Positions 15,874 through 58,203 of a DNA stretch of 64,000 nt are shown here, piece after piece. Both the position numbers and the translations under genes were made by a program. The notes beneath the pieces are model-generated. The model was not told where the DNA came from and made no database searches. It was given only the letters and a program-made list of their open reading frames with translations. Numbering within the stretch: the first letter of the stretch is position 1; the number at the start of each line of letters is the position of its first letter. The stretch is from Geminicoccaceae bacterium. Lineage in GTDB: Bacteria; Pseudomonadota; Alphaproteobacteria; Geminicoccales; Geminicoccaceae. The stretch covers positions 9,789 to 73,788 of the forward strand of contig JBFWWD010000001.1 of assembly GCA_050246385.1 (NCBI GenBank). The letters run 5' to 3'.

Positions 15874-16488
15874 TCAGGTGGCAGGAGAGCCGAGCAGCAG
15901 TTCGAGGCTCTGCCGGACCTTGGCGCGCGCCCGATGCAGCAGGACCCGCCGGTTGCCATCGGTCAGGCCGAGGACATCGCAGATCCCCGCCGGATCCAGC
16001 CCTTCGACGTCATGCAGCGTGATCACCGCCTTCTGTAGCGGCGGGAGATCGTCGAGAATCTCGACGACCTGGCTCCAGAGCTGCCGGCCCGCGACGATCC
16101 GCTCGGGATCGAGCGCGTCCCAGGAGCGGGGAGGATCGCACCACATCCCGGCCGCGTCGAAGCGATGCGCGTCGACCGCGGCCGGATCTCCGCCGTCCCC
16201 CACGGCTTCGGAGAAGGTCACGGTTCGGGCATCCCGGACGCCGCGTGTCCGCGCCTTGTTGACGAGAATGCGGTAGATCCAGGTCATCAGGGATGACCGC
16301 GCCTCGAACCGGTGCAGCCCGTCCAGCACCGCCAGCCAGGTCTCCTGGACTACCTCCTCAGCGGAAGCCCGGCTCCTCACGAAGCTCCGGGCGAACCGGA
16401 TCATCGCGGCATGGTGTCCATGCACGAGGTCGCGAAACGCCTGCTCGTCCCCCGCCTGAAGGCGTGCGCACAGATCACTCCTGTCCAT
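15874..16488 (-). CDS. ECF-type RNA polymerase sigma-70 family factor
   Basis: Region 2 (AEEVVQETWLAVL...TWIYRILVNKA) and region 4 (LPPLQKAVITLHDVEGLDPAGICDVLGLTDGNRRVLLHRARAKVR). Confidence 0.85.
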   Translation of the reverse strand: MDRSDLCARLQAGDEQAFRDLVHGHHAAMIRFARSFVRSRASAEEVVQETWLAVLDGLHRFEARSSLMTWIYRILVNKARTRGVRDARTVTFSEAVGDGGDPAAVDAHRFDAAGMWCDPPRSWDALDPERIVAGRQLWSQVVEILDDLPPLQKAVITLHDVEGLDPAGICDVLGLTDGNRRVLLHRARAKVRQSLELLLGSPAT

Positions 16489-17235: not shown

Positions 17236-19389
17236 TCAGCGACGCCGCCATTTGAGCCACCATCCCGACAGAAGAATCGCCCATTTCGGCGCATGGGCGA
17301 GGCGCCATTTTCCGGCCACCGCCCGATTCGCCTCCATCCACCCGGGATAGGGATGGATGGTCCGCAGCACAGCCTTCAAGCCGAGGCGGTTCCTCATCGT
17401 CAGCACCCATTCGGTGAGCATGTCGCCCGCCCGCGCCCCCACCAGGGTGACGCCAAGGATTCGATCCTTGCCCGGCACGGTCAGGACCTGGACGAATCCT
17501 TCATTAGCTTCGTCGACGATCGCCCTGTCGAGTTCCGCGAGGTCGTAGCGCGTAAGCTCGTAACGTATTCCACGGTCCCGGGCCTCGGTCTCGGACAGGC
17601 CGACTCTCGCGATCTCCGGATCGGTGTAGATCACGACGGGAAAGAGCCTCGTGTTGACCGACCAGAGCTTCAGGGTTCCGAACAGCGCGTTCATGACAGC
17701 GTACCAGGCGTAATGCCCGGCGGCATGGGTGAATTGGAGCTGGCCGATCACGTCGCCCGCCGCAAAAATGGTGGGAATTCGGGTGCGCAGCGTCTCGTCG
17801 ACCACAAGGCGCCCATCGTCAAGCAAGCCGAGCTCCTCCAGGCCGAAGCCTTGCGTTCGCGGCCGGCGGCCGGTGGCCACCAGCACTCGGTCGAAATCAA
17901 ACGACCGCCCATCCTGAAGATGGACGCGGCTATTGTCGGGACGGCGCTCGAAACGCTCAATCGCGACGCCGGTCAACACCTCGATGCCTTCGGCCGAGAG
18001 AGCGTCCAGGAGAACCGCACCTACCTCGCCGTCCTCGCGAGCGACCAGGCGGGGGGCTCCTTCCAACACGACGACGCGGCAGCCAAGGCGCGCGAAGGCC
18101 TGCGCCAATTCGCATCCTATGGCGCCGCCGCCGACAACCAGCAGCCTGTCTGGGCGCTCGGTGAGCGACCACAGCGAGTCCGACGTCAGCAGATCGATCT
18201 GATCGAGGCCGGGGATCGGCGGAATCGCGGGTTCCGAACCCGTCGCGATCACAAGCCGGCGCGCTGCCAGCGTCCGCCCCGCGACGACGATGCTCCACGG
18301 GCTCGCGACCCGGGCATCTCCCTGAATCACCTCGACCCCGAGGCTACGATATCGTTCGGCGGAATCATGCGGCGCCACCCGCGCAATGACGCGATGGACT
18401 CGTGCCATTACAGCGGAGAAGTCCGGTGTGAGCCGGCCGGACAAACCGAACCGGTCGGCCTGCGCACCCTCTCGCGCGAGCCTGGCGGAGCGGATCAGCG
18501 CCTTGGACGGGACGCAGCCGGTGTTCAGGCATTCGCCGCCCATGGCATTGCGCTCGATCAGCGCGACCTTGGCTTTCGCCATCGCCGCAAGATACGCCGT
18601 CACGAGGCCGGCGGCACCACCGCCGATGACGATAAGGTCGTACTGGAGGGTCTGGGGCCGGGGCCACCGGCGCAGTACCGAGCGCCGTGACCACCAGGAT
18701 TGTCCTAGTTTCGTGCCGAAGGGCAACGCCGCCAGCGCGGCGAAGGCCGCGATCAGCCGACCGCTGAACAGATCCTCGACCTGCTCGATCGAGGCGAGCT
18801 GCGTTCCAGCGTTCACATAGACGACCGTCGCCGGCAGCATGCCGAGCTGGCTCACCCAGGCGAAGGTGACAGTACGCATCTGGGTAAGGCCCATCGCCAG
18901 ATTGATGGCGAAGAAGGGCACGAAAGGGACGAGCCGGAGGCCGAACAGATAGCGCGCGCCATCCCGCTCGATCCCGTCGTTGATCTTCGCCATCGCGCCG
19001 GCGTACCGCCGCTGCATGACTCCGCGCAGGAGATAGCGGGAGGTCACCATCGCCAGGGTGGCCCCGATCGTGCTGGCGAAGGAGGCGATCAGCACGCCAC
19101 CAACAAGACCGAAGAGGCTGCCGGCCAGGAGCGTCAAGGCCGCAGCGCCGGGCACGGACAGCGCAGTCGCCAGCACGTAGAGGCCAACATATGCCAGGAC
19201 GCCCTCAACGGCGTGGTCGGCGATCCAGCGCTGCCATGCGTGGCGTTGGCGGATTACCGCTTGCCAATCAAGATAGCGATGCCCGCCAGCGGCAAAGAAG
19301 ATGGCCACCGCCGCCACTACAGTCAGGATTAGTACACCCCTGAGAAGGGTGTTTGCCTCGCTTGGCGAAGACACTGTCGACCGGCTCAA
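17236..19389 (-). CDS. fusion protein: TVP38/TMEM64 (DedA-like) membrane domain + pyridine nucleotide-disulfide oxidoreductase
   Basis: The N-terminal ~230 aa form a polytopic DedA/TVP38-like domain. The C-terminal ~480 aa carry FAD-binding GGGAAG, the redox-active disulfide GGECLNTGCVPSK, and NAD-binding GGGAIGCELA. Confidence 0.85.
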   Translation of the reverse strand: MSRSTVSSPSEANTLLRGVLILTVVAAVAIFFAAGGHRYLDWQAVIRQRHAWQRWIADHAVEGVLAYVGLYVLATALSVPGAAALTLLAGSLFGLVGGVLIASFASTIGATLAMVTSRYLLRGVMQRRYAGAMAKINDGIERDGARYLFGLRLVPFVPFFAINLAMGLTQMRTVTFAWVSQLGMLPATVVYVNAGTQLASIEQVEDLFSGRLIAAFAALAALPFGTKLGQSWWSRRSVLRRWPRPQTLQYDLIVIGGGAAGLVTAYLAAMAKAKVALIERNAMGGECLNTGCVPSKALIRSARLAREGAQADRFGLSGRLTPDFSAVMARVHRVIARVAPHDSAERYRSLGVEVIQGDARVASPWSIVVAGRTLAARRLVIATGSEPAIPPIPGLDQIDLLTSDSLWSLTERPDRLLVVGGGAIGCELAQAFARLGCRVVVLEGAPRLVAREDGEVGAVLLDALSAEGIEVLTGVAIERFERRPDNSRVHLQDGRSFDFDRVLVATGRRPRTQGFGLEELGLLDDGRLVVDETLRTRIPTIFAAGDVIGQLQFTHAAGHYAWYAVMNALFGTLKLWSVNTRLFPVVIYTDPEIARVGLSETEARDRGIRYELTRYDLAELDRAIVDEANEGFVQVLTVPGKDRILGVTLVGARAGDMLTEWVLTMRNRLGLKAVLRTIHPYPGWMEANRAVAGKWRLAHAPKWAILLSGWWLKWRRR

Positions 19390-20051: not shown

Positions 20052-20777
20052 TCAGTAACGAGTGGTGAGCACCGTGAGCCAGGCGGGTGACATCTCGACC
20101 AGGGCAGCTTCCAGCCGCTTGTCGAGACCGATCAGGATCAGGAAGCCAAGGAGAACGAGTAGGCCGCCGAGCAGCATCTTGCCGCCTTTGCCGGCGCGCA
20201 GAAGCCGATCGCGCCATCGCATCACGGCCTCACGCGAGAGCAGCCCGAGGGCCGCCATCGGAACGGCGGCACCGATGCCGAACGCGGCCATGGTGAGTGC
20301 AACCTGCCCCAGATTCTGCCCGCGGGCGGCCATCACCGAAGCCACTCCCAGCGTGGGCCCGACGCAGGGACTCCAGACCGCCCCGAGCAGCATCCCCAAG
20401 GCGAACTGGCCTTTGAGCCCGGTCACCTCCACACCGCCAAGTGTGCGCTCCGCCCAGTTGCCGACCGGACCAGCCGCAACGGCGAATTGGGTCTGCACGC
20501 GCGGCATGAGCAGGACGACGCCCATGGTCGTCAGAAGGACTGCGCCCATCGATCGAAAAAGTTCGGTGTCGAGCCCGATCGAGAATCCGATCGTCGCCAC
20601 GAACAGCCCGATCGCAACGAACGACAGCGCCAGGCCACAAGCCAGAGCCGCAGGTCCGAGCTTATGCTCGAACGTCGCGGTTCCCAGAATGATCGGCAGG
20701 AGCGGCAGGACGCATGGCGACAGAATCGAGAGGACGCCCGCCAGGAACGCGAGGATCAAGCTGCCGCCTGCCATCAT
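20052..20777 (-). CDS. ccdA: cytochrome c biogenesis CcdA/DsbD-type thiol-disulfide transporter
   Basis: About 6 TM segments, with conserved Cys in TM1 (LSPCVLPLLP) and TM4 (WSPCVGP). Confidence 0.8.
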   Translation of the reverse strand: MMAGGSLILAFLAGVLSILSPCVLPLLPIILGTATFEHKLGPAALACGLALSFVAIGLFVATIGFSIGLDTELFRSMGAVLLTTMGVVLLMPRVQTQFAVAAGPVGNWAERTLGGVEVTGLKGQFALGMLLGAVWSPCVGPTLGVASVMAARGQNLGQVALTMAAFGIGAAVPMAALGLLSREAVMRWRDRLLRAGKGGKMLLGGLLVLLGFLILIGLDKRLEAALVEMSPAWLTVLTTRY

Positions 20778-28831: not shown

Positions 28832-29092
28832 TGGCTTCGAATTCCGTCACTTTGCTGAGTCTTATCCGTTTTGTGCTAACCTATTGAGCCGACGACTGAT
28901 TCTTGTTCTGGACCATTTTTCCGTACGCCCCTGGAACGAGCACGGCTACCGCACTCCTACTGAAGCCCTCCAAGACCAGCTCGCCACCCTCCCTGGGCCG
29001 CGTAAAGGTGTCAGCCAAGCCTGTCGCGCTTCGCCCCGAAACCGCCAACCAGGTTAAGGTGTCCCAGCTCGGAAAAAGCAGAAATGGAGGAG

Positions 29093-29278
29093 CACCACAA
29101 AGCGCGGCGTTTCGGCGGCGGCCGCGAGATCGGGTCTCGGACCGAGCGTCGCAAAGAAGACGACAGCAGCAAGGGCAATCGCAAGGCCGACTGCGCCCCA
29201 CCACAGGGACGAGAGCGACGCTGCGGGCCGTCGCATGTCCGATATCAACGCCTCGATGGGTTCGTTCGTATCCGTCTC
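29093..29278 (-). pseudogene. nrsF (DUF1109) anti-sigma factor N-terminal fragment
   Basis: TNEPIEALISDMRRPAASLSSLWWGAVGLAIALAAVVFFATLGPRPDLAAAAETPRF parallels the N-terminus of the intact NrsF at 32344 (TSDLVAALAADAKPVRRL...LLGLRPDLAEHLRQPVF). The remaining ~150 aa are missing. Confidence 0.45.
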
Positions 29279-29422
29279 GATTCTGCCCAATCCGCCTGGC
29301 CCCGATCGGCGCCTCGAGATCGGCCAGAGGCCGCGCGGGGCCGCCATCCCTCGTGAGCCAGCGGGCGGCGCCGCCTGAGACGTGCTCACAACGCGACCGC
29401 CCGCCTAAAGCGACCTCCGAAA

Positions 29423-30751
29423 TCAGCGTCGAGTCACTCGGTACTCCTCGGGCAGAAAGTACAGGCTGTCCTGGTCATCCGCCACGGCCGCGTGACACTC
29501 CGCGCAGAACTGCACCTTGTCGCTGCCGGGGCCATGGGTCGCGCCGAACAGGCTGCCATCCGGCATGATCATGCTGTAGCGCCAGTCTTGGCTCGTGGCG
29601 CTGAAGCCTTGTGGCATCTTCTCCATGATGAACAGCGGCCCGACGGTGACCTGGCCAGCAGGTGAGACGACGAAGCTGTCCTTGGCGATGCGGCCTCCGA
29701 CAGGCATGGCACCCATCGCTTCGAACTGGCCATAAGCCGCCAGCGCTTCGGGGCCGGGATAGTTGTTGACGTAGCGGCTGCCGTGCGTCGCCGACACGTA
29801 CGGTCGCGTGTTGACGCGGTCCCACCCCTGGTACTCCTGGGCGATCGTCGCCGCTTCGCCAGGTACCGCGGCCGCCTGGATGACCTGCGGATTGCCCGGG
29901 CTGGCGGCAGCGTGCGGCTCGCACGGGTTCTTGGCTGCGCAAGGGTTGCTGGGGTTAGTCGCCGCACCCGAATTCAAGGGCTTCTTCACCGCGCACGGAT
30001 TACACGGGTTGGCAGCGGCGCACGGGTTCGCGGCCTTAGCGGCCGCCTGCGGCCTCTCTCCGGTATAGGCGGCCTTCATGGCATCCTTGATGCACGTGTA
30101 GGCGGCATCGGCTTCCTCGGCCGTCAGCTCGACGGGCGCCGCAGCGGCGCATGGATTGCAGGGGCTGCACGGGTTGGCGGCGGCGCAGGGATTCTTGGCA
30201 GCGCAGGGGTTGCACCCGGTTTTGGCGGCGCAGGGGTTCGTCGCCGCGCAGGGATTTGCAGCCGCAGGCTCGAGCTTCGCCGCACAAGGATTCTGTTCCG
30301 CGGCCGTCTGCAGCCGCGGAACGACGCACTCGCTCGTGCCGGTCATGCCCTTCGCGGCGCAAGGATTGCAGGGGCTTGCGGCGGCCGCCAGGGTTTGCGC
30401 CGCCGGGATCTTGATGACCTGACCGACATGGATCCGGTCGGGATTGGCGATGCCGTTGTAGTCCGCCAACGTCCGGTAGCGGCTGGCGTCGTTGTAGAAC
30501 ATCTGGGCCACGCGGGCCAGACTGTCCCCCTCGCGGATCGTGTAGGTTTGCTCGGCCATTCCCTTCGCCGCGCAAGGATTCGCCGCAGCGCAAGGGTTGG
30601 CCTGGGCGAGTTGCATCGGCTCGGCGGCCGAGCCGGCCGCCAAGCCGTCGGCGGCCGTTATCAGCACGGCTCCACCCAGCAGCGCCGCAATGGGAACCAG
30701 GGTGCGCAAGGCGGTGGCGGACAACAGATGACGCCGAACGCTCATGGCCAT
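29423..30751 (-). CDS. exported LysM + [N/S]PC-repeat + cytochrome P460-like domain fusion protein
   Basis: Shine-Dalgarno GAAGGAGG plus ATG and a signal peptide. LysM domain (YTIREGDSLARVAQMFYNDASRYRTLADYNGIANPDRIHVGQVIKIP). 17 NPC/SPC units lie in three blocks. The C-terminal ~140 aa align with the neighbouring P460-like protein and end in the haem motif FCAECH. Confidence 0.8.
   Translation of the reverse strand: MAMSVRRHLLSATALRTLVPIAALLGGAVLITAADGLAAGSAAEPMQLAQANPCAAANPCAAKGMAEQTYTIREGDSLARVAQMFYNDASRYRTLADYNGIANPDRIHVGQVIKIPAAQTLAAAASPCNPCAAKGMTGTSECVVPRLQTAAEQNPCAAKLEPAAANPCAATNPCAAKTGCNPCAAKNPCAAANPCSPCNPCAAAAPVELTAEEADAAYTCIKDAMKAAYTGERPQAAAKAANPCAAANPCNPCAVKKPLNSGAATNPSNPCAAKNPCEPHAAASPGNPQVIQAAAVPGEAATIAQEYQGWDRVNTRPYVSATHGSRYVNNYPGPEALAAYGQFEAMGAMPVGGRIAKDSFVVSPAGQVTVGPLFIMEKMPQGFSATSQDWRYSMIMPDGSLFGATHGPGSDKVQFCAECHAAVADDQDSLYFLPEEYRVTRR
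29921..30604 (-). repeat. degenerate in-frame coding repeats encoding NPCAA(A/K) units, in three blocks
   Basis: The blocks are at 30566-30604, 30137-30379 and 29921-30034. On the plus strand they show as reiterated gcgcaggg(a/g)tt / gcgcacgggtt units. They translate to ANPCAAANPCAAK, NPCAATNPCAAKTGCNPCAAKNPCAAANPCSPCNPCAA, and similar. Confidence 0.75.
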
Positions 30752-30753
30752 GA

Positions 30754-31479
30754 TCAGCCTCCTTCTCGGTTGACGCTGGACGCCGGCTCGGGCCGCTGCC
30801 CGCTCGCGGGAACCGCAAGCTCGGGGCGCCGGAACGCCTCGGGTACGAAGAATAGGAAGTCGTGATCCGCGCCGGCGGTGGCGTGGCAGTTCCGGCAGAA
30901 GGCGACCTGTTCGTCGTTCGCGCCACGGGTCGTGCCGAGGACGGTCCCATCGGGCATCACCAGCGTGTAGCGCCAGTCATGCCCGTCGGGATCGAAGCCC
31001 GGCGGCATCTTCTCCATGAGCGCGAGCGGCCCGGGGTAGAATTGGCCGTCGTGCTTGACGGTGACGGCGTCCTTGGCCAGGACGGCACCCACCGGCATGG
31101 GTTGCCCGGAGCCGTAGTCGCGGGCGAGCCGGTTGGTGTAGTTGTTGACGAACCGCTCCCCGTGGGTTGCGGAGCGATAGGGCGCCCGGTTGAAGCGGGG
31201 CCAATCCTGGTACGCGGCCGCCGCGGGCAGGCCCGAGAGGGCGTAGTTGTCGCGCAGCACGGCGCGAACGCTCTCATAGACCCGCACAGCATCAGACTCG
31301 GTGAGCGTCGCCGGATCTTCGAGCAGAAAATGCTCGCCCACTCGTTCGGATCTGGGGGCGGGCGTGAGCCTCGTCACATCGAATGCCACCGATTCTTGAT
31401 CATGCGTCCGCGACACGATCATCGCGACGACCACCCCCGCGGCGAGCAAGCCCACGACGTAGAGCGCAGGCCGGGCCAT
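30754..31479 (-). CDS. membrane-anchored cytochrome P460-like protein
   Basis: Shine-Dalgarno GGAGACGGAGG plus ATG at 31479 (alternative ATG at 31545). N-terminal anchor MARPALYVVGLLAAGVVVAMIV. P460-family-like core (RSATHGERFVNNY...PLALMEKMPPGFDPDGHDWRYTLVMPDG) and C-terminal CXXCH (FCRNCH). Confidence 0.7.
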   Translation of the reverse strand: MARPALYVVGLLAAGVVVAMIVSRTHDQESVAFDVTRLTPAPRSERVGEHFLLEDPATLTESDAVRVYESVRAVLRDNYALSGLPAAAAYQDWPRFNRAPYRSATHGERFVNNYTNRLARDYGSGQPMPVGAVLAKDAVTVKHDGQFYPGPLALMEKMPPGFDPDGHDWRYTLVMPDGTVLGTTRGANDEQVAFCRNCHATAGADHDFLFFVPEAFRRPELAVPASGQRPEPASSVNREGG

Positions 31480-31625
31480 CCTCCGTCTCCTCGCGCCGGC
31501 CGGACGGTGGCGCACGCGCGGCGCGGCTCCTCGGCGTCGCGGCATTCGGGATGCGAGTGCGTCCTGCGTCGCGTGATCTGCCCTGGCATGGCCTCCTTGC
31601 CCGCCGGCGGCTCTCACAAAGCAAA

Positions 31626-31651
31626 TTCGTGGCGAGAGGGTGCGAGGTTAC
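31626..31651 (-). promoter_or_regulatory. putative sigma-F (ECF16-type) promoter GTAACC-N16-CGAA
   Basis: The minus strand reads GTAACC TCGCACCCTCTCGCCA CGAA, with -35 at 31651-31646 and -10 at 31629-31626. It points into the P460 operon. As I remember it, this matches the motif reported for Caulobacter SigF-dependent promoters. Confidence 0.5.
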
Positions 31652-31722
31652 GCTCGGCGCCTCATTCTTCCGGGAGCATCACCGCCCCGTGACCCACTGC
31701 GCGCTCGGGATCGTGCATCACT

Positions 31723-32340
31723 TTGCGCCGGCCGGAGAACCAAGCGCTGGCGACAATGCGGAGAAGCGGTCGAGACCGGAGCAGCACCCGCACGGGCGGC
31801 GAAGAGGACTGGTCGGTGCTCATGTCGCGCGCGCAAGCGGGCGACCGCGACTGCTACCGGCGACTGCTCGGAGATGTCGTTCCCTACCTTCGCGCCTTGA
31901 TCCGGCGGCACGCGGCCCTGTCGGGCGAAGGCGAAGACGTGCTGCAGGACATTCTTTTGGCCCTGCACAGCGTGCGGCAGACCTACGACCCGAAGCGTCC
32001 CTTCGGGCCTTGGCTTGCCGCGATCGCGCGGCGGCGGATCGTCGACCGTTTGAGGACCCGCGGCCGCATCGAGGTGGTCGAGATTGGACTCGGCCCGGAG
32101 CACGAAACCTTCCCCGCTGCCGAAGCGAACCTCTCTGTGTTGAATGTTGATCGACGTGAGTTGCGGGCGGCGATCGAGCGGGTGCCCGCCGGCCAGCGGA
32201 CGGCCGTGAAACTGCTCAAGCTGCGCGAGCTGTCGCTAAAGGAGGCCGCAGTGGAGAGCGGAATGGCCATCCCGGCGCTCAAGGTCGCAACGCACCGCGC
32301 CATGAAGGCGCTGCGCGTGATGCTGCGGCGGAAGGATTGA
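31723..32340 (+). CDS. sigF: ECF sigma factor, SigF-like (paired with NrsF)
   Basis: Region 2 (DVLQDILLALHSVRQTYDPKRPFGPWLAAIARRRIVD) and region 4 (LPAGQRTAVKLLKLRELSLKEAAVESGMAIPALKVATHRAMKAL). The start is uncertain (alternative ATG at 31756). The symbol is given by analogy to the Caulobacter sigF-nrsF pair. Confidence 0.75.
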   Translation: MRRPENQALATMRRSGRDRSSTRTGGEEDWSVLMSRAQAGDRDCYRRLLGDVVPYLRALIRRHAALSGEGEDVLQDILLALHSVRQTYDPKRPFGPWLAAIARRRIVDRLRTRGRIEVVEIGLGPEHETFPAAEANLSVLNVDRRELRAAIERVPAGQRTAVKLLKLRELSLKEAAVESGMAIPALKVATHRAMKALRVMLRRKD

Positions 32341-32343
32341 GGC

Positions 32344-33009
32344 ATGCTGACGACGTCCGACCTCGTGGCCGCGCTCGCCGCCGACGCCAAGCCGGTGCGG
32401 CGGCTGCGCCCGCCCACGCTGCGCGCGGCACTTTGGCTGCTTCTTGCGGGGCTCCTCGTGCTGGCCCTAGCGGTGCTCCTCGGCCTGCGTCCCGATCTGG
32501 CCGAGCATCTCCGGCAGCCTGTCTTCGCGGTGATGCTCCTGGCCTCGCTGTCGACGGGCGCGCTCGCCGCGGTCACCGCCTTCCACCTCAGTCTTCCCGA
32601 CCGATCGCGCCGCTGGTTGTGGTTGCCCGTCCCGGCGTTCCTGCTCTGGGTGTCGAGCATCGGCTATGGCTGTCTGACCGACTGGGTCCGCATCGCGCCG
32701 GACAGCATCGTGCTCGGCAGCACCCTCCAGTGCTTTGCGACCGCGCTGATCGTCTGTCTGCCGCTATCGTTGGCCCTCCTACTGATGCTTCGCCATGCTG
32801 TCTGGCTCGACCCGGTGCCGGTCGCGATGGCGGGCGGGCTTGCGCTCGCTGGTGTTTCCGCGACCGCTTTATCGTTACTTCACCCGCTCGACGCGACCGT
32901 CATGGTCCTGCTCTGGAATCTCGGCTTGGCTGCTCTGATGGTGGCACTCGCCGGCCGATTCGGCCGCTGGCTTTTCGCCTGGGCCGAGCCGCGCTCGATG
33001 GGTGGTTGA
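32344..33009 (+). CDS. nrsF: NrsF family (DUF1109) membrane anti-sigma factor
   Basis: Starts 3 nt after the sigma gene stop. N-terminal TSDLVAALAADAKPVRRL followed by six hydrophobic segments. Confidence 0.75.
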   Translation: MLTTSDLVAALAADAKPVRRLRPPTLRAALWLLLAGLLVLALAVLLGLRPDLAEHLRQPVFAVMLLASLSTGALAAVTAFHLSLPDRSRRWLWLPVPAFLLWVSSIGYGCLTDWVRIAPDSIVLGSTLQCFATALIVCLPLSLALLLMLRHAVWLDPVPVAMAGGLALAGVSATALSLLHPLDATVMVLLWNLGLAALMVALAGRFGRWLFAWAEPRSMGG

Positions 33010-33069: not shown

Positions 33070-33759
33070 GTGACGGCTGCTGACGAGGACTCGTCGATGA
33101 TGGCGACCCGACTCGCTGCGGGACGCGATGCGCTGTTGTGGGAGCGGGTGCTGGCGAAGAGTGGAGCCAACATCGTCGGCGAGGTGCTGGCGCACCAGGG
33201 CACGTTCTACGAGTGGAACCACTACCCGGCTGGCGACGTCTTCGACCCCGACAGCGGCAGCCAATGGTACTACCACGCTCACCCCAAGGAACAGCGCCCC
33301 GGTGAGCACGGCCACTTTCACACCTTCCGGCGCGACGGTGAGCGGATCGTGCACTTGGTTGCGGTCTCGGCTGATCGGGGTGGTCACGCGATCCAGCTCT
33401 TCACCACCAACCGCTGGGTAACCGGCGAGAGCTGGGCGCCGGCCGGGGAGGCCGCTGCGCTGTTAGAGGGGTTTGATGTCGTTCTCGCCAGGCCATCCTG
33501 GCCGGTGAACCGCTGGCTCGTCTCGCTTCTTCGCTTCCATGCGCTGGTGGTGCGCGAGCTGCTCGTCGCGCGAGATGCGGCCATCGCGGACTGGCGCCGG
33601 CAGCATCCGGACACCGACGTCTTCGAGGATCGCGGGCTGGAAGTGACCTCCCGGCGAGAGATCGATCTCATCGCTGACGTGGCCGCGCTCGAGCAGGCGA
33701 CGGCAGTAGTTACCTGGCCCAGTAACCGCGAAGCTTTGCATTTTGGCCATGTGAGATGA
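33070..33759 (+). CDS. conserved hypothetical protein
   Basis: Clean 229-codon ORF with a GTG start (alternative ATG at 33097). Protein-like composition (GTFYEWNHYPAGDVFDPDSGSQWYYHAHPKEQRPGEHGHFHTF). No family recognised with confidence. Confidence 0.5.
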   Translation: MTAADEDSSMMATRLAAGRDALLWERVLAKSGANIVGEVLAHQGTFYEWNHYPAGDVFDPDSGSQWYYHAHPKEQRPGEHGHFHTFRRDGERIVHLVAVSADRGGHAIQLFTTNRWVTGESWAPAGEAAALLEGFDVVLARPSWPVNRWLVSLLRFHALVVRELLVARDAAIADWRRQHPDTDVFEDRGLEVTSRREIDLIADVAALEQATAVVTWPSNREALHFGHVR

Positions 33760-34885: not shown

Positions 34886-35503
34886 ATGACGATCCGGCAT
34901 GTGCTCGCCAGTCACGAGCCGGCTGCCGTGGCGCCTGAAACGTCGCTCCGTCCGACCTTACGGACGTCAGCTCGCCGGTGGATTCACGTCCTGCTGCCGC
35001 TGCTCACTTTTCTGGCGATCGGGATCTTCCTCGGCGTCGGTCTGACCCGTGACCCGAGTATCCTGCCGTCGACGCTGATCGGCCGGCCGGTGCCGACGTT
35101 CAGCCTGCCGCCGGTCCAGGGGCGGACGCTCGGGCTGTCGAGCGCCGACCTCAAGGGCGAGGTCTCGCTCGTCAACGTGTTCGCCTCCTGGTGCACCGCC
35201 TGCCGGCTCGAGCATCCGGTATTCCTGCGCCTGAAGGCAGAGGGCGTCGTGCCGATCCACGGCATCAACTACAAGGACCGGCCCGAGGATGCGGCCGCCT
35301 GGCTCGACGAGCTGGGCGATCCCTACACTCGCACCGGAGCGGACCGGAGCGGACGGGTGTCGATCGACTGGGGCGTGTACGGCGTGCCGGAAACCTTCGT
35401 CGTCGATCGGGACGGCAGGATCGCCTTCAAGCAGGTCGGCCCAGTTACGCCCGAAGTGTACGCAAAGACGATCGCTCCTCTGCTCGAAGGGCTGCGGCCA
35501 TGA
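34886..35503 (+). CDS. DsbE/CcmG family thiol:disulfide oxidoreductase
   Basis: Membrane anchor and active site WCTACRLEHP, with a GVPETFVVDRDGRI tail. Confidence 0.85.
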   Translation: MTIRHVLASHEPAAVAPETSLRPTLRTSARRWIHVLLPLLTFLAIGIFLGVGLTRDPSILPSTLIGRPVPTFSLPPVQGRTLGLSSADLKGEVSLVNVFASWCTACRLEHPVFLRLKAEGVVPIHGINYKDRPEDAAAWLDELGDPYTRTGADRSGRVSIDWGVYGVPETFVVDRDGRIAFKQVGPVTPEVYAKTIAPLLEGLRP

Positions 35504-36093
35504 GGGGGCGCGTCATGATCGCCGCAGCCGTTTGGGCTGGCGCTGCAATCCTTGCGGGAGCCGCGATGCTCTTCGTCCCGAGGGAGGAGCCGCAGCACCA
35601 GCCGGCGCCTGCGGCCACGGCGGTCGGTGGGGAGCTGTTCGCGGCCTCCAAGCCGAGGCCCGTTCCCGAGCTGCGGTTCGTCGACGGCGCGGGCCGGCCA
35701 CGGGCCCTTGCCGACTTCCGCGGCAAGGTGGTGCTCTTGAACCTTTGGGCGACCTGGTGCGTGCCCTGCCGCAAGGAGATGCCGGCTCTCGACCGTCTGC
35801 AGGCCCATCTCGGCGGGCCGGACTTCGAGGTCGTTGCGTTGTCGATCGACAGGAAGGGCCTGCCGGCGGTGCAGGCCTTCTACGCCGAGCTCGGGCTGAA
35901 GGCGCTCGCGATCTATGTCGACGCGAAGGGGGATTCGGCAAATCAGGTCGGCGCGCTCGGGATTCCCACAACCCTGCTCATCGACAGGAAAGGAGATGAG
36001 GTGGGGCGCGTGGCAGGCCCGAGGGAGTGGGACTCCCAGCAATCGATGCTGGAAATCGAACGGCGCATCGGTCCTGCGTCAACGGCACCATAG
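35500..36093 (+). CDS. TlpA family thiol:disulfide oxidoreductase
   Basis: ATGA overlap with the upstream stop, a membrane anchor, and active site WATWCVPCRKEMP. Confidence 0.85.
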   Translation: MRGRVMIAAAVWAGAAILAGAAMLFVPREEPQHQPAPAATAVGGELFAASKPRPVPELRFVDGAGRPRALADFRGKVVLLNLWATWCVPCRKEMPALDRLQAHLGGPDFEVVALSIDRKGLPAVQAFYAELGLKALAIYVDAKGDSANQVGALGIPTTLLIDRKGDEVGRVAGPREWDSQQSMLEIERRIGPASTAP

Positions 36094-39243: not shown

Positions 39244-39504
39244 CAGCGAGCGGGCGGGCGGGCGGCTCGACACCGCGGTGCGCAGCAGCTGGACTCGCAG
39301 CGGTCTGATGCCGGTGCCGATCCTCGGCACCGACCTCTCTCGACTCGTGCAATGGCTCGTGCTCCCCCTGGGCACCTTCCGTTGGGCCAGCCGGTCGGCC
39401 GCGCGGTATCTCACAAGGGCAATTCCATGATCGACCGGTCCCTGAAGACCCTTGTGCCTGCCAATCCCTCGCTGAGGACAATGCCGTCCGTTCGAGGGAT
39501 CGAG

Positions 39505-40920
39505 ATGTCGCGCCGCGATCTGCTGGCCGCAGGTGCGGCCGTGGCCGTGGCGATGCCTCTCGGCTCCGTGCGGGCGGCCGCCGTCCGTGACCACCGCCTG
39601 GTCGCCGGCACGGCGCGGGTGCCGCTGGCGGGAGCGAGCTACCCCGGGACCGAGGTCTGGGCCTACGACGGCTCCGTCCCGGGGCCGGAGATCAGGCTGC
39701 GCCAGGGCGAGCGCCTCCGGATCGTGGTCGAGAACCGGCTGACCGAGGACACGACGGTGCATTGGCACGGCGTGCGGGTTCCCAACGCCATGGACGGCGT
39801 GCCGGACGTGACCCAGGCGCCGATCGCCCCCGCCGCAACCTTCGTCTACGAGTTCGACGTGCCGGACGCGGGAACCTACTGGTATCACCCGCACCAGCGC
39901 AGCTACGAGCAGGTCGCCCGCGGCCTCTACGGCCCACTGATCGTCGAAGAACGGGAGCCGATCGAGGTCGATCGGGACGTGCTCTGGGTGCTCGGCGATT
40001 GGCGGCTCTTGCCCGATGCCAGCATCAGCGGCGAGTTCGGCAATGCCATGGAGACCGCCATGGCCGGCCGGATCGGCAACACCGTCACGGTCAACGGCCG
40101 AGTGATCGACACGTTCGCAGTCCGCGCCGGCGAGCGCATCCGGTTGCGCCTCGTCAACGCCGCGCCGGCGCGGATCTTCGCGCTCGACTTCCGACGTTAC
40201 CGCCCGCGCATGATCGCACTCGACGGCCAGCCGGTGACGCCGCACGAGCCCGCGGGCGGCCGCGTCGTGCTCGGCCCGGCGCAGCGGGCCGACCTCGTGC
40301 TCGACCTGACCGGCGCACTTGGCAGCCGCGCCACGGTCGCGGATACGTTCTATCAAGGGCTCGAGTACCGGCTGCTCGACCTTGCCTACGATGCCGAGCC
40401 GCTGCGCACCCTGCCCTCGGATGCGCCGATCGCCCTTACCGCCAACAGCCTGCCCGAGCCCGACCTCGGCGATGCCGAACGACATGAGATCGTCATGGGC
40501 GGTGGCATGATGGGCGGGATGATGAGCAGGAGCGGTGGCACAATGCAGGGCATGTCCCATGGCGGCGGCATGATGATGGGCGGCGGCATGGGCATGGCCT
40601 GGACCTTCAATGGCGTTGCTGCCACCGACCATGACATGCGACCGATGCTCGAGCTGAAGCAGGGCCGGCCCTACGTGCTGGCACTCGCGAACGAGACCGC
40701 GTGGTGGCACCCGATCCACCTGCACGGCCATGTCTTCCGGGTGATTGCCCGCGACGGCGCACCGACTCCGTTTCGCGAGTGGCGTGATACCGTGCTGCTC
40801 GCGCCGCGCGAGCGGGTGGAAATTGCCTTCGTCGCCGACAATCCCGGCGCCTGGATGATCCATTGTCACGTCCTGGACCACCAGAACGGCGGCATGATGG
40901 CGATGATCGAGGTTGCCTGA
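39505..40920 (+). CDS. multicopper oxidase with Met/Gly-rich insert, Tat-exported
   Basis: Tat-like MSRRDLLAAGAAVAV. Copper sites VHWHGVRVP, WYHPH, HPIHLHGH and HCHVLDHQNGGMM. Insert GGGMMGGMMSRSGGTMQGMSHGGGMMMGGGMGM. Confidence 0.85.
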   Translation: MSRRDLLAAGAAVAVAMPLGSVRAAAVRDHRLVAGTARVPLAGASYPGTEVWAYDGSVPGPEIRLRQGERLRIVVENRLTEDTTVHWHGVRVPNAMDGVPDVTQAPIAPAATFVYEFDVPDAGTYWYHPHQRSYEQVARGLYGPLIVEEREPIEVDRDVLWVLGDWRLLPDASISGEFGNAMETAMAGRIGNTVTVNGRVIDTFAVRAGERIRLRLVNAAPARIFALDFRRYRPRMIALDGQPVTPHEPAGGRVVLGPAQRADLVLDLTGALGSRATVADTFYQGLEYRLLDLAYDAEPLRTLPSDAPIALTANSLPEPDLGDAERHEIVMGGGMMGGMMSRSGGTMQGMSHGGGMMMGGGMGMAWTFNGVAATDHDMRPMLELKQGRPYVLALANETAWWHPIHLHGHVFRVIARDGAPTPFREWRDTVLLAPRERVEIAFVADNPGAWMIHCHVLDHQNGGMMAMIEVA

Positions 40921-43207: not shown

Positions 43208-43483
43208 TCAGCGATCGCGCTGCGTCAGCACGGTCAGGAGCTCTTGGACCTTGCGGCGCTGATCGTCTCCGTCGCCGCTGGCGATCGCGCCCTCGACGCA
43301 GTGCTCGACATGATCCTTGAGCACCTCGTCCTCGACGCCGCGCAGCGCCGCACGGATCGCCCGGATCTGGGTCAGGACGTCGATGCAGTACCGGTCCTCG
43401 TCGATCATCCGGGCGATGCCGCGGACCTGACCCTCGATCCGCTTCAGCCGATCGCCACACCTGCGCTTTGTGTCCGCTCTCAT
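43208..43483 (-). CDS. csoR: CsoR/RcnR family metal-sensing transcriptional repressor
   Basis: 91 aa with [16 protein letters not shown] and the Cu(I) ligand pattern C-H-C (RYCIDV...DHVEHCV). Divergent from the P-type ATPase. Confidence 0.85.
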
Positions 43484-43494
43484 GTCTTGTACAT

Positions 43495-43509
43495 TACCCC
43501 CCTAAGGTA
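43495..43509. promoter_or_regulatory. putative CsoR operator TACC-N7-GGTA in the csoR/copA divergent promoter
   Basis: TACCCCCCTAAGGTA lies 12 nt from the csoR start codon and 58 nt from the copA ATG. It is a C/G-tract pseudo-palindrome of the type described for CsoR operators. Confidence 0.45.
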
Positions 43510-43566
43510 TATCTCGTCAAGCATCGGGATGCCGACCGCCTGCGAGGCGAGGTAAGGAAATCGTCC

Positions 43567-45939
<2,373 letters not shown>

Positions 45940-49996: not shown

Positions 49997-51346
49997 TTAG
50001 TTGGGCACGGCAAGCAACAGTGGGCCGGTCGGAGAGGCCGGTTGCGCACTGTTATCGGCTTCACCGCCGGCTGTCCGGCCCCAGCAAGCAACAACATCCT
50101 TGCGCCCTGGCAACCTGAGTTCCCCGAGGTTGATGAACGTATCGTCGGGAAAGCCTGGACCATAGGTGCGTCTCAGCGCATCGGAGACTACGAGGGCGAG
50201 GTCACGGTCCGCAGCAATCCGGTGCAGCCGCTCGGCGACATTGACCGTATCACCGAGCACCGTGAACTCGAGCATACCATCTTGGCCCACGACGCCGGCG
50301 AACACCTCACCGAAGTGACCTCCGGCGGCGATACGGACCGGCTGCTGGCCCATGGCAAGGCGCCTTCGGGACCAACCTGCGATGCCTGCTTGCATGATGC
50401 CGATGCAGCGGAGCGCGCAGGCCGCCGGGTTCGCGTGTTGCTCGGGCGCGCCGAACACCGCCAACGCGCCATCGCCAATGAATTTGTCGATCGAGCCCTT
50501 GCAGGCGAAAACGGCGCGGGTGACCAACCGCCGAAACTCGGCGAGAAAGGGACCCAGCTCTTCGGGTTGCATCCTCTCCGCCAAGGCCGTGAAGCCACGG
50601 ATGTCCACAAACAGAATCGCCACCTCGCGACGGTCGCCGGCCAGCTCGCGGACGCTCTCGGCACCGCCGAGGCGTTGCGCCACCGCCGGCGAGAAAAAGC
50701 GCTCAAGGCGCGCTGCACGCTGCGTGGCGGTCAGCGCCTTCTCCAGCAGCCCGTGCGTCCGCCGGGCGACGAACCAGAGAACGATCGTGGTGAGCGCCAG
50801 CGTCGCCAGCGGCAGAACCGGCCAGTAGTCGGCCATGGGGACATGGTAGCCGTGCAGCGGCTCGAACGGACGCCAATGCGGCGCGGCCATGACTAGGGCG
50901 AGCACCCCGACCACCGTCACCCCGGCGTAGAGCACGGTCGATGCATTGAACCGAAGTGCGGCGTGGGCAACGAGCAGGAACGCCAGCCCGGAGGCTGGCA
51001 ACGCAAACAGCCGGCTGGTCGGCATGTCGGCGGCGACTGCCAAGCCGGCGAGCAGCGTGGCGGCCAATAGGGCATCCGCCGTAACGCAGGTGAGGACGAA
51101 GGCTCGACTGTTCCAGCGGTAACAGACCGCGAACCAGCTGAGCGTGGCCAGGACGCTGTAGCCGACGAGCGCGCCCGCGGTCAGGGAATCGTGATGATGG
51201 CCATCGCTGGCGGCCAGGAACAGCAACCAGAACACGGCCAGGATCAGAGTGCGTACCCCGGCGTATAGGAGGTCGGCCTCGGCTTCCGCTCGCATCAGGA
51301 GCGCCCTGGCGCTCAGATCGGGCAGAGCACTCGACGATCGTGCCAT
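49997..51346 (-). CDS. membrane-bound class III adenylate/guanylate cyclase
   Basis: N-terminal region with about 6 TM segments, then the catalytic domain (VAILFVDIRGFTALAE...KFIGDGALAVFGAP...EFTVLGDTVNVAERL). Confidence 0.85.
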   Translation of the reverse strand: MARSSSALPDLSARALLMRAEAEADLLYAGVRTLILAVFWLLFLAASDGHHHDSLTAGALVGYSVLATLSWFAVCYRWNSRAFVLTCVTADALLAATLLAGLAVAADMPTSRLFALPASGLAFLLVAHAALRFNASTVLYAGVTVVGVLALVMAAPHWRPFEPLHGYHVPMADYWPVLPLATLALTTIVLWFVARRTHGLLEKALTATQRAARLERFFSPAVAQRLGGAESVRELAGDRREVAILFVDIRGFTALAERMQPEELGPFLAEFRRLVTRAVFACKGSIDKFIGDGALAVFGAPEQHANPAACALRCIGIMQAGIAGWSRRRLAMGQQPVRIAAGGHFGEVFAGVVGQDGMLEFTVLGDTVNVAERLHRIAADRDLALVVSDALRRTYGPGFPDDTFINLGELRLPGRKDVVACWGRTAGGEADNSAQPASPTGPLLLAVPN

Positions 51347-51934: not shown

Positions 51935-53251
51935 TCAGGCCGGCCGGCCGGCGCCGTCGACCTTGTAAGCCACGGTGCCCGGCGGATGCTCGAACCAGCC
52001 GGGATCCGTGTAGTCGCCGGGGGCGACGTCCTTCCTGACTTTGACGACCGTGAACATGCCGCCCATCTCGATCGGCCCGAACGGGCCCTCGCCGGTCATC
52101 ATCGGCAGCGTGTTCTCGGGCGGCGTCATGCCGTGGGCGGCCATGTCCTGCATCTCGGCCATGCCCTGCTCGCCCATCGGCATGTACATGTAGTTGGGCA
52201 GCAGGCGGGCCACCCGCTTCGCCGCCGCCGTCTGCCGGACACCGATCATGTTGGCGATCTCGTGGCCCATCGGGCCCATGGTGTGGTGCGACTTGTGGCA
52301 GTGGAACGCCCAGTCGCCCTCCTCGTCCGCCGTGAACTCGATGCAGCGCATGGCACCCACCGGGATGTCGGCGGAGACCTCCGGCCACTGCGCGCTCTCC
52401 GGCACCCAGCCGCCATCGGTGCCGGTGACCCGGAAATCGTAGCCATGCAGGTGGATCGGGTGGTTGGTCATGGTCAGGTTGCCGATCCGGATGCGCACCC
52501 GATCGCCTTTCCTGACCACGATCGGATCGATGCCCGGGAACACCCGGCTGTTCCAGGCCCAGGTGTTGAACTCGAGCATGACCGAGGTGTCCGGCACCCA
52601 GGTGCCGGGCTTGACCTCGTAATTGGCCATCACGAAGCCGAAATCGCGGTCGACCGGGCGGAACGACGGGTCCTTCGGGTGCACGATGAACAGACCCATC
52701 ATGCCCATGCCCATCTGCACCATCTCGTCGGCGTGGGGGTGGTACATGAACGTGCCGCTCTTCTTCAGCGCGAACTCGTAGGCGTAGGTCTCGCCGGGCT
52801 GGATCTGCGTCTGCGTCAGCCCGCCGACCCCGTCCATCCCGCTCGGCAGGAGGATGCCGTGCCAATGGAAGGTGGTGGGCTCGGGGAGCCGGTTGGTGAC
52901 GAAGATCCGCACCCTGTCGCCCTCGACCGCTTCGATCGTCGGGCCGGTCGAGGTGCCGTTGTAACCCCACAGGTGGGCAATCGAGCCGGGCGCCAGCTCG
53001 CGCTCGACCGGCTCGGCGACCAGGTGGAACTCCTTGACGCCGCGGTTCATGCGCCACGGCAGCGAGCCGCCGTTGAGGGTGACGAACCCGGTGCGCCCAC
53101 CGAGCTGCCTCTTTGGCAGCGGGTCCCGAGTCGTCGGGTCGCTGAAGCGTACCGGCTCACCCAGCGCGCGCGTCTGTGCCTCAGACGCGCGGGAGAGAAC
53201 GGCGCCGGTGGCGAGCGTCACCCCGGCCGCGAAAGCGCGTCGGCTGATCAT
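51935..53251 (-). CDS. multicopper oxidase, Tat-exported
   Basis: Tat-like MISRRAFAAG. Copper sites FHWHGILLP, MYHPH, HPIHLHGYDF and HCHKSHHTMGPM. Met-rich C-terminal region (MYMPMGEQGMAEMQDMAAHGM). Confidence 0.85.
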   Translation of the reverse strand: MISRRAFAAGVTLATGAVLSRASEAQTRALGEPVRFSDPTTRDPLPKRQLGGRTGFVTLNGGSLPWRMNRGVKEFHLVAEPVERELAPGSIAHLWGYNGTSTGPTIEAVEGDRVRIFVTNRLPEPTTFHWHGILLPSGMDGVGGLTQTQIQPGETYAYEFALKKSGTFMYHPHADEMVQMGMGMMGLFIVHPKDPSFRPVDRDFGFVMANYEVKPGTWVPDTSVMLEFNTWAWNSRVFPGIDPIVVRKGDRVRIRIGNLTMTNHPIHLHGYDFRVTGTDGGWVPESAQWPEVSADIPVGAMRCIEFTADEEGDWAFHCHKSHHTMGPMGHEIANMIGVRQTAAAKRVARLLPNYMYMPMGEQGMAEMQDMAAHGMTPPENTLPMMTGEGPFGPIEMGGMFTVVKVRKDVAPGDYTDPGWFEHPPGTVAYKVDGAGRPA

Positions 53252-58112: not shown

Positions 58113-58203
58113 GTTTCATCAGGGTTGCGATGCTCGTGACCGGGCAAGCAAGGACCTCGCGAGCCCGTTGGAGGCGTCTGCTCGAGATTCGCTGGAGGCT
58201 GCA

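Follow-up and report, generated by a model that had tools for sequence, protein, structure and literature searches.

Most work on cytochrome P460 has dealt with it as a side enzyme in nitrifiers and methanotrophs, and proteins of the P460 family are dimers. The CytL proteins of Nitrosomonas europaea (2JE2, 2JE3 and 8GAR) and Methylococcus capsulatus (6HIU) are periplasmic and carry a C-terminal CXXCH motif and a lysine that is cross-linked to the haem. The cytochromes c′-beta (6HIH, 7S5O and, from Thermus thermophilus, 7EAD and 8BRK) have a mostly-beta haem fold common to both groups. In N. europaea P460 the cross-linking lysine is Lys70, and the distal carboxylate base is Glu97 in the numbering of the same source (PMC10411619). 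The locus described here is a two-gene operon on the minus strand of a 64,000-nucleotide stretch of a Geminicoccaceae genome (contig JBFWWD010000001.1), referred to below as the window. Both genes, A and B, encode haem proteins of the P460/c′-beta fold that retain a lysine at the cross-link position. In gene B the haem domain is joined to a LysM domain and to an array of Asn-Pro-Cys (NPC) units, and the pair is preceded by a predicted sigma-F promoter. Proteins that combine NPC repeats with a P460 domain are called NPC-P460 below, and those with the haem domain and without repeats are called plain P460.

The regulatory setting of the operon also has described counterparts. Systems built from sigma-F, which is a sigma factor of the extracytoplasmic function (ECF) type, and its anti-sigma factor NrsF respond to Cu, Cd, Cr and reactive oxygen or chlorine species (PMC4436054, PMC3511200, PMC3420878, PMC11626156). 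In Caulobacter, SigF controls the bufferins, periplasmic Cys-derived copper chelators that belong to the core copper-stress regulon; BufA1 and BufA2 are Sec-exported and Cys-dependent, and are encoded with the MNIO enzyme BufB and the DUF2063 protein BufC (PMC3511200, PMC11626156). In Azospira suillum, a sigma-F promoter in the intergenic region shared with the divergent sigF-nrsF pair drives the Met-rich sacrificial peptide MrpX together with YedYZ (MsrPQ) (PMC4436054). In Bradyrhizobium, methionine sulfoxide reductases are under the control of EcfF, as is a protein of cytochrome c biogenesis (PMC3420878).

Gene A (30754..31479, minus strand) encodes a plain P460-type haem protein of 241 aa, and gene B (29423..30751, minus strand) a protein of 442 aa comprising LysM, NPC-repeat and P460 parts. 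The two are translationally coupled; the junction reads GGAGG-C-TGA-TC-ATG, with a stop–start gap of 2 nt and the Shine–Dalgarno sequence of gene B within the 3′ end of gene A, so that the coupled operon proposed in an earlier reading of the sequence alone can be read directly in the DNA. Gene A is taken from its ATG. Its open frame extends upstream to GTG 31617, which would add an Arg-rich N-terminal extension; this extension is absent from the recorded 241-aa product, which is 100% identical to gene A (P0121, ‘cytochrome P460 family protein [Geminicoccaceae bacterium]’, from a metagenome-assembled genome, MAG). Both genes (241 and 442 aa) are annotated on the NCBI contig of GCA_050248835.1. 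The call of the 442-aa gene and a GC content of 0.82 at third codon positions in the proposed frame support the translation of the repeat region as first proposed. Gene B contains exactly 17 [N/S]PC tripeptides and 22 cysteines in total. When its residues were shuffled 5000 times, the mean number of such tripeptides was 0.21 and the maximum 3; no other open reading frame (ORF) of the window has three or more.

The assignment of the haem domains of both proteins to the P460/c′-beta group is secure, since Pfam, the family profile and a structure search agree on it. The Pfam model Cytochrome_P460 (PF16694) has a cut-off of 27 bits, which gene A passes with 30.8; gene B, with 24.5 bits, stays slightly below it, but its close relatives reach up to 35.8 bits. 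When either haem domain was compared with the PDB as a single sequence, the matches were at chance level only; a profile built from 22 domain sequences retrieved 7S5O (E 5e-4) and 7EAD. A Foldseek search with the AlphaFold2 (AF2) model of gene B returned 7S5O, 2JE2, 8GAR and 6HIH with target TM-scores of 0.52–0.64 and E values from 1e-4 to 2e-3; the matches to the haem core are confined to P460 and c′-beta proteins, and LysM structures rank after them in the list. The haem domains of A and B are 46% identical, and each protein has a single C-terminal CXXCH (CRNCH in A, CAECH in B). The sequence-only reading had put forward both the family and the shared C-terminal domain, and both assignments stand; of the domain models, LysM in gene B and P460 in gene A pass their cut-offs, while P460 in gene B falls just short.

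Within this group, the two proteins are by sequence of the Lys type, that is, P460-type rather than c′-beta, because a lysine aligns at the cross-link position in three independent alignments. The lysine of the AKDSF motif (Lys357 in B, nt 29681-29683; Lys136 in A, nt 31072-31074, both on the minus strand) is invariant in the family alignments A1 and A2. A profile comparison, for which the N. europaea sequence was checked against 2JE2, places it opposite Lys70 of N. europaea P460, and it also aligns to Lys78 of M. capsulatus P460. In the profile alignment, the same position is Met in the c′-beta protein 7S5O and Phe in 7EAD. The Glu of the near-invariant MEKM motif (B, 29615-29626; A, 31006-31017) aligns to the Glu of GLEAS in N. 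europaea P460, inside a gapped stretch and in an hhalign match of 40% probability. The CXXCH motifs lie at residues 416-420 of B (CAECH, 29492-29506) and 195-199 of A (CRNCH, 30883-30897).

Compared with CytL, the haem domains thus described have the fold (target TM-score 0.52–0.53), the C-terminal CXXCH, the lysine at the cross-link position and a periplasmic location in common. The identity is about 19%, however, and gene B has, in addition, a LysM domain and a Cys-rich array some 230 residues long, in an operon with predicted sigma-F control. The host is a Geminicoccaceae MAG in which no ammonia- or methane-oxidation genes were seen near the operon. The cytochromes c′-beta provide the best profile and fold matches, but have Met or Phe where the lysine is invariant here, and possess neither repeats nor LysM.

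Gene B has a composite structural architecture, all parts of which lie on the minus strand. A signal peptide region (residues 1-50, 30602..30751) with the conserved motif LLS[ST]T..P, delimited from alignment A2 and the N-termini of relatives, is followed by Cys-repeat block 1 (residues 51-63, 30563..30601), which reads ANPCAAANPCAAK. The LysM domain (residues 70-116, 30404..30544) matches the whole PF01476 profile with 41.5 bits against a cut-off of 20.9, is modelled with pLDDT >90 and has LysM matches in Foldseek, in line with the beta-alpha-alpha-beta fold of this family; the NCBIfam scan of gene B likewise returned LysM-containing families only. Block 2 (residues 125-202, 30146..30379) is interrupted by the element CVVPRL (residues 142-147, 30311-30328). 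Next comes the N-terminal helix of the haem domain (residues 205-229, 30065..30139; VELT..EA.AAY.C, with Cys220; helix 211-229 in the AF2 model). Block 3 (residues 241-278, 29918..30031) is inserted between this helix and the beta core, as alignment A2 shows, and is present solely in members of the LysM clade; the P460-fold haem core occupies residues 296-442 (29426..29866). The signal peptide, the LysM domain, the 17 NPC or SPC cysteines and the insertion of the third block in the helix region had all been named in the sequence-only reading and are borne out by Pfam, by the counts and by the alignment.

In the AF2 model of gene B, computed with a 38-sequence alignment, the confident parts are LysM, residues 139-158, helix 211-229 and core 296-440, with pLDDT of about 85–95 over most of the haem core; repeat blocks 1–3 all have pLDDT <50. 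Residues 139-158 are modelled with high confidence despite their position within the disordered array, and C142, P145, R146 and L147 in this segment are at least 90% conserved in A2. The elements C-[VT]-V-P-R-L and VELT..EA.AAY.C are non-repeat elements kept in nearly all aligned members; gene A has neither of the two cysteines of these elements. The N-terminus of gene A (residues 1-24) is a hydrophobic signal or anchor. The hydrophobic segment on which a membrane-anchored gene A had been proposed is therefore real, but anchoring does not follow from it, as the N-termini of three relatives of the gene A type (L010, L011 and L083) resemble cleavable signal peptides when judged by eye.

The array of gene B consists of about 18 cysteines in CNP and CAAxNP units and is, judging from the low model confidence, probably disordered. 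In relatives, the region ahead of the haem domain has 8–50 cysteines (median 29) and is composed of 15% Cys, 15% Pro, 12% Asn and 25% Ala, with 0.6% Met and almost no His or aromatic residues. Most cysteines are spaced as CxxC or Cx5C. A Cys–Cys spacing of 3 (C-N-P-C) is far commoner than one of 6, and multiples of three account for about 83% of the spacings tabulated. Odd numbers of cysteines per protein are as frequent as even ones, which argues against a fixed all-disulfide fold. At the DNA level the repeats show just weak, short tandem arrays; recent tandem duplication was rejected, and the repeat is old and diverged. Haem-regulatory Cys-Pro motifs were considered and rejected, as the residue order here is Pro-Cys or Cys-Asn-Pro.

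The operon is preceded by a promoter sequence of the ECF16 (sigma-F) type, GTAACC-TCGCACCCTCTCGCCA-CGAA (31626..31651, minus strand), the sole exact GTAACC-N16-CGAA in the 64-kb window. It lies between gene A and the ECF sigma gene, which is transcribed divergently, in the intergenic stretch that separates them, and a 5′ leader of about 146 nt (31480..31625, minus strand) extends from it to the start of gene A. GTAACC-N16-CGAA is the experimentally derived sigma-F binding sequence of Caulobacter (Kohler 2012, PMC3511200), and tGTAACc-N16-CGAA is the consensus of ECF group 16 (PMC3420878). No sigma-70-like promoter was found in 28900-31850; scans around the operon gave no intrinsic terminator and, with the 5′ leader included, no Rfam match. 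The ECF sigma factor gene (31822..32340, plus strand; open frame from TTG 31723) has Sigma70_r2 and r4_2 domains and a product of 172 aa in the NCBI record. It is followed by the gene for NrsF (DUF1109; 32344..33009, plus strand), which matches the full PF06532 profile with 100.8 bits and has a weak match to the NCBIfam model AntiSigF_NrsF. The sigma factor is classed as SigF type by its pairing with NrsF and by the ECF16 promoter, and not by direct assignment to an ECF group.

The same arrangement recurs in related genomes. Related loci amounting to about 0.93 Mb contain the exact motif at six independent sites, with four loci that copy the window set aside, and three of the six directly precede an NPC-P460 gene at sigF-linked loci. 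In L001 it lies upstream of a LysM-type gene that is divergent from sigF-nrsF. L064 has two exact motifs, one facing a gene of the PG_binding_1 type and the other facing a divergent OmpR-type response regulator gene. In L083 the motif is upstream of an NPC-P460 gene beside sigF-nrsF. The motif in L068 was not accepted as a promoter; it falls within a coding region, on the strand opposite to it, and is regarded as a chance occurrence. In L178, which belongs to the LysM clade, sigF-nrsF is divergent and the exact motif is 58 nt upstream of the gene. Overall, the exact motif stands ahead of the cysteine-repeat P460 gene in 5/5 independent sigF-linked loci (the window, L001, L178, L064 and L083).

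Several minor observations touch this regulatory module. At the LysM-clade locus L177, with no sigF nearby, the LysM-NPC-P460 gene is overlapped at its 3′ end by an exact motif (6287-6312, plus strand), which is directed towards a region where no gene is called on the plus strand. A motif with one mismatch, GAAACC-N16-CGAA, occurs within the sigF coding region of the window (32104-32129, plus strand) and, on the sigF strand within or near sigF, also in L001 (7456-7481, minus strand) and L178 (4474-4499, minus strand). It could be an internal promoter of nrsF or a mere reflection of conserved protein coding. Directly downstream of gene B, a short ORF (29054-29389, minus strand; called as a 60-aa gene in the NCBI record) matches NrsF over its N-terminal quarter only (positions 9-57 of the 204 in PF06532, 29.7 bits) and appears to be what is left of a second, truncated anti-sigma-F gene.

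A homologue search with gene B yielded 676 proteins. The top-scoring relatives, which are metagenome matches, have about 50–60% identity and the full LysM, repeat and P460 architecture; the closest are 57–61% identical. Many of the lower-scoring relatives are 300–430 aa long, have no LysM match and contain the LLS[ST]T..P signal peptide, 8–42 NPC units and the C-terminal CXXCH. When 50%-identity representatives were searched exhaustively, 541 clusters matched at E ≤ 1e-3. A scan with one genome per species found at least 502 carriers of cysteine-repeat P460 proteins, almost all of them Alphaproteobacteria (Rhodospirillales, Kiloniellales, Geminicoccaceae and Thalassospiraceae). Geminicoccaceae, the family of the host, is itself alphaproteobacterial. 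Three records among the carriers and hits come from named strains and not from MAGs, namely Chelativorans alearense UJN715, Aestuariispira insulae CECT 8488 and Oceanibacterium hippocampi. In another clade (P0035; Chelativorans, L064), a PG_binding_1 domain is inserted in the array. Because the insert is LysM in one clade and PG_binding_1 in the other, a peptidoglycan-binding domain has evidently been acquired twice, and predicted wall tethering arose twice.

In the NCBI records, the only name met for an NPC-P460 protein is ‘cytochrome P460 family protein’ (P0063). The repeat has no matching model in Pfam or NCBIfam, and literature searches gave nothing relevant on the repeat sequence, on P460 with cysteine-rich repeats or on P460 with ECF sigma factors. 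The earlier remark that no characterised protein with this combination was known stands, since the family is uncharacterised, but the combination is by no means unique to the window. The components, namely the P460 fold, LysM and the sigma-F/NrsF pair, are known; what is new is their combination, in which a Lys-type P460 domain is joined to an NPC array, accompanied by DUF6969 and FGE-like partners and, in some lineages, placed under sigma-F control. A plain P460 domain of the same clade was also found in another context: in L068 (5161-6429, plus strand) it forms one protein with a class III nucleotide cyclase, and a predicted membrane-spanning segment lies between the two. The hit P0155 has a length like that of the L068 fusion and a precomputed Guanylate_cyc domain. 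Given the L068 fusion, the P460 domain of this clade can apparently be used as a periplasmic sensor module.

The neighbourhood of the repeat proteins is recurrent. Among 150 neighbours of NPC-P460 genes, a Pfam census counted DUF6969 (16), proteins like FGE (formylglycine-generating enzyme)-sulfatase (14), plain P460 (8), Sel1 (6), small cytochromes c (6), response regulators (5), MFS transporters (5), Rrf2 (4) and DsbA (3). In one layout, an FGE-like gene and DUF6969 stand beside NPC-P460, at times with a standalone NPC peptide; another runs from cytochrome c through plain P460 and NPC-P460 to Sel1. A CycA-like cytochrome c is co-encoded in several relatives. The window has plain P460 and LysM-NPC-P460 with sigF-nrsF-DUF6969, and no FGE-like ORF. 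Pairing of plain P460 with NPC-P460 was found in at least 11 of 80 genome loci and in Oceanibacterium L010 and L011; in L001 and L178 the plain P460 gene is two genes off, on the opposite strand. The FGE-like gene occurs in 21 of the 80 related loci, and DUF6969 lies no more than 6 kb from P460 in about 27 of these 80, which had been selected for P460.

In the window, the DUF6969 gene (33070..33759, plus strand; PF22308, 229.6 bits) starts 60 nt after nrsF. The DUF6969 family comprises at least 4995 homologues and has several invariant His residues. The AF2 model of DUF6969 is confident (pLDDT 89) and has no significant PDB fold match; a PDB sequence search was empty and a literature search found no mention of the family. 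A cupin assignment, considered for a motif like G-x5-H-x-H, was rejected, as the model gave no cupin or other significant PDB fold. DUF6969 genes chosen independently of P460 adjoin small secreted NPC peptides of about 90–110 aa, some of which were missed by gene callers. A set of 80 metagenome loci was also selected by DUF6969; of the 28 with 1.5 kb on both sides, to which the count was restricted, 11 have an NPC ORF. The FGE-like gene is present in 27 of 47 DUF6969-selected loci and directly upstream in 19. The FGE-like partner is secreted and has a Cys pair in GGSWDD.GCG.CRPAARH; its best NCBIfam models are EgtB, SenA and PvdO, all far under their cut-offs. Standalone NPC peptides with no haem domain were located in L093 (5802-6107, minus strand), L096 (4472-4798, minus strand) and L003 (5572-5916, plus strand); those of L096 and L003 carry an LLS[ST]T-type signal peptide, and the peptide of L093–L095 has no gene call in the source annotation.

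Gene B resembles several described sulfur-rich polypeptides, and differs from each. Metallothioneins have very high Cys contents, CxxC-type spacing and no aromatic residues or His, and are probably disordered without metal. Gene B is like them in Cys density, CxxC spacing, scarcity of aromatic residues and His, and likely disorder, but it is periplasmic, predicted to be wall-tethered, fused to a haem domain and built on an N-P-C unit, and its metal binding is putative. With the bufferins it has SigF/NrsF control, export, Cys dependence and the stress context as possible common traits; it is, however, a haem protein of 442 aa and not a small modified peptide, and the partner that recurs beside it is DUF6969, joined in relatives by an FGE-like protein, rather than an MNIO enzyme. 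Membership of the bufferin/MNIO group was rejected, as gene B matches no bufferin-type, DUF2282, DUF692 or DUF2063 model of Pfam or NCBIfam, and none of these was found among the window ORFs scanned. The likeness to MrpX lies in the divergent arrangement and in a low-complexity, sulfur-rich periplasmic polypeptide that has a redox enzyme partner (PMC4436054). MrpX is Met-rich, whereas the array here has 0.6% Met and 15% Cys, and the redox module is a P460 haem domain within the same protein as the array; a scan of window ORFs gave no YedYZ.

The function tentatively preferred here, with a probability that we put a little short of even, is that of a thiol buffer in the periplasm, induced by sigma-F and tethered to the wall, which would take up soft metals or oxidants and be coupled to a redox-active P460 haem. 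NrsF would sense periplasmic stress, caused by thiophilic metals such as Cu or by reactive chlorine or oxygen species, and release SigF, which would induce the operon. Gene B would then be held on the cell wall through LysM, with its cysteine array serving as a high-capacity thiol buffer that binds soft metal ions, is sacrificially oxidised, or both. The P460 haem domains of A and B would move electrons to or from the array, and A and B may pair as a heterodimer, as P460-family proteins are dimers. The small cytochrome c of relatives and the DsbE/TlpA-type reductases of the window would close the redox cycle. The proposal matches other sigma-F regulons, in which sulfur-rich periplasmic polypeptides (bufferins, MrpX) are paired with a redox partner. 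The metal-related genes at sigF-linked loci, the cysteine chemistry of the array, the twofold gain of a peptidoglycan-binding domain and the recurrent redox partners also speak for it. The link of the operon to metal, redox or nitrosative stress is inferred from context. This stress-response idea, already present in the sequence-only reading, is strengthened by the exact sigma-F promoter ahead of the operon and at four other sigF-linked loci; the ECF sigma/NrsF pair and the copper island on which it had drawn are real, by the PF06532 score and by domain scans.

A number of points weigh against the thiol buffer. The periplasm is oxidising, and DsbA may convert CxxC to disulfides, which are poor metal ligands and oxidant sinks. 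The pairing of A with B is purely conjectural. Conservation is highest in the haem domain, which also keeps the P460 lysine; this points to a defined haem chemistry that a thiol buffer does not explain, and the FGE-like and DUF6969 partners of relatives suggest that the cysteines could be enzymatically modified and not free thiols. The regulatory argument is also narrower than the window implies. Among 52 NPC-P460 genes with upstream sequence, the exact motif was found only in two, both with sigF-nrsF alongside (one further gene has the motif with one mismatch), and the majority of family members are not near sigF. The association with sigF-nrsF is thus real at five independent loci, but most of the family is found elsewhere; sigma-F control as a family-wide trait is ruled out by the survey, and by this evidence it is a trait of some lineages.

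The conserved haem domain leads to the first rival explanation, a genuine P460 pair for N-oxide detoxification, in which Lys-cross-linked haems would oxidise hydroxylamine or bind NO and pass electrons to cytochrome c, with the array acting as a nucleophile or S-nitrosation sink for the ferric-nitrosyl intermediate, or as a spacer. The sequence-only reading had set nitrifier-type chemistry aside, and on this point it has to be revised: both proteins keep a lysine at the cross-link position, so P460-type N-oxide chemistry is not to be dismissed. The invariant lysine aligned to Lys70 and Lys78 of the two P460 enzymes, where c′-beta proteins have Met or Phe, the fold matches confined to P460 and c′-beta, the CycA-like cytochrome c of several relatives and the alignment of the MEKM and GLEAS Glu residues all fit this explanation. 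The last of these, however, falls in a gapped, low-probability region, and the distal-base alignment is of low confidence. Neither in the window nor in the inspected loci were amo, hao, nir or nor genes seen next to the operon, and the documented triggers of sigma-F/NrsF are metals and reactive oxygen or chlorine species, with no response to NO or hydroxylamine in the cited literature. The 8–50 cysteines, the wall tethering and the DUF6969 and FGE-like partners would also be left unexplained, and we consider this explanation unlikely. A sensory role would account for the haem domains in another way; they would bind a small ligand or report the redox state and feed back on NrsF/SigF or another partner. 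The plain P460–cyclase fusion of L068 and the similar P0155, the adjacency of the operon to its regulator and the response regulators that recur nearby (5 of the 150 neighbours, and L064) are compatible with this, but A and B have no output domain, and a dense Cys array with wall tethering is atypical of sensors. The position behind a sigma-F promoter fits a target, though feedback regulators can be targets too. This role is regarded as very improbable.

Where the haem explanations leave the partners aside, a third one starts from them. The NPC array may be a substrate of post-translational modification, in which an FGE-like oxidase and the His-rich DUF6969 convert Cys-x-Pro to formylglycine, heterocycles or cross-links and so produce a modified metallophore or polymer, as MNIO enzymes make bufferins, with the haem as an accessory. 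DUF6969 and FGE-sulfatase-like proteins are the two commonest families among the neighbours (16 and 14 of 150), and DUF6969 genes chosen independently adjoin standalone secreted NPC peptides, with NPC ORFs in 11/28 and FGE-like genes in 27/47 loci (19 directly upstream). The invariant His residues and the confident but unmatched model of DUF6969 suit an undescribed enzyme of this kind. FGE enzymes act on Cys in C-x-P-x-R, and each NPC unit reads C-x-P. The fit is not exact, as the repeats (C-N-P-C-A) lack Arg at position +4 and the Pro of CVVPRL is at +3; with no FGE-like gene in the window, the array was rejected as an exact FGE substrate. The association is partial, at roughly 40–57%, DUF6969 has no signal peptide by eye, whereas the FGE-like partner is secreted, and a literature search found no system in which FGE acts with cysteine-rich modified peptides. 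Modification of the array is for these reasons rated as quite unlikely. A broader version, held to be similarly doubtful, would make the NPC array the core of an undescribed modification or metal-handling system with DUF6969 and a secreted FGE-like Cys-pair oxidase; the array would occur both as standalone peptides and fused to a Lys-type P460, and would in some lineages have been recruited to the sigma-F regulon and anchored to peptidoglycan.

Whichever function applies, a Lys-type P460 domain is present in at least 502 species genomes, almost all alphaproteobacterial, in a setting wholly different from that of nitrifiers and methanotrophs, and it is fused to a secreted sequence that is among the most cysteine-dense seen in bacteria. 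If the thiol-buffer proposal is true, the operon would represent a third sulfur-based form of periplasmic protection within the sigma-F theme, after bufferins and MrpX/MsrPQ, and a role of the P460 haem outside nitrogen metabolism. The question is directly testable in a cultured carrier, Chelativorans alearense UJN715, in which the gene is accompanied by DUF6969 and sigF-nrsF. The association with DUF6969 and the FGE-like protein would be the first functional handle on a DUF family of thousands of members.

The surroundings of the operon include genes of thiol and metal metabolism. Downstream of DUF6969, between the sigF cluster and a copper-resistance island, there is a tandem of a DsbE family thiol:disulfide reductase gene (34886-35503, plus strand; TIGR00385, 163.8 bits against a cut-off of 123; Redoxin) and a gene for a TlpA-like periplasmic thiol:disulfide reductase (35566-36093, plus strand; 178 bits with the TlpA model, under the cut-off of 230; Redoxin). 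These neighbours possibly supply reductant. The copper-resistance island (39352-59673, delimited by domain scans) includes three multicopper oxidase genes (39352-40920, plus strand; 51935-53251, minus strand; 58168-59673, plus strand), a P1B-type ATPase gene with YHS and HMBD domains (43468-45939), DUF411, DUF2933 and four DUF305 genes; a nucleotide cyclase gene (49997-51346) is interspersed among them. On the other side of the operon, the minus strand carries a second ECF sigma factor gene (15874-16488), a gene for a 717-aa fusion of VTT/DedA with a MerA-like pyridine-nucleotide disulfide oxidoreductase (17236-19389) and a gene for a DsbD_2/CcdA-like membrane protein (20052-20777).

Metal-related genes were also noticed at the other sigF-linked loci. 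In Chelativorans alearense (L064, 2850-4862), the NPC-P460/DUF6969/sigF-nrsF cluster lies beside ORFs reading as MerR, MerT, MerP and MerA; this mer operon was read from ORF translations, and the domain-checked genes of the locus are the response regulator and NPC-P460. A P-type ATPase fragment in L083 was likewise read from an ORF translation and not domain-checked. L001 and L178 each have a cupredoxin gene.

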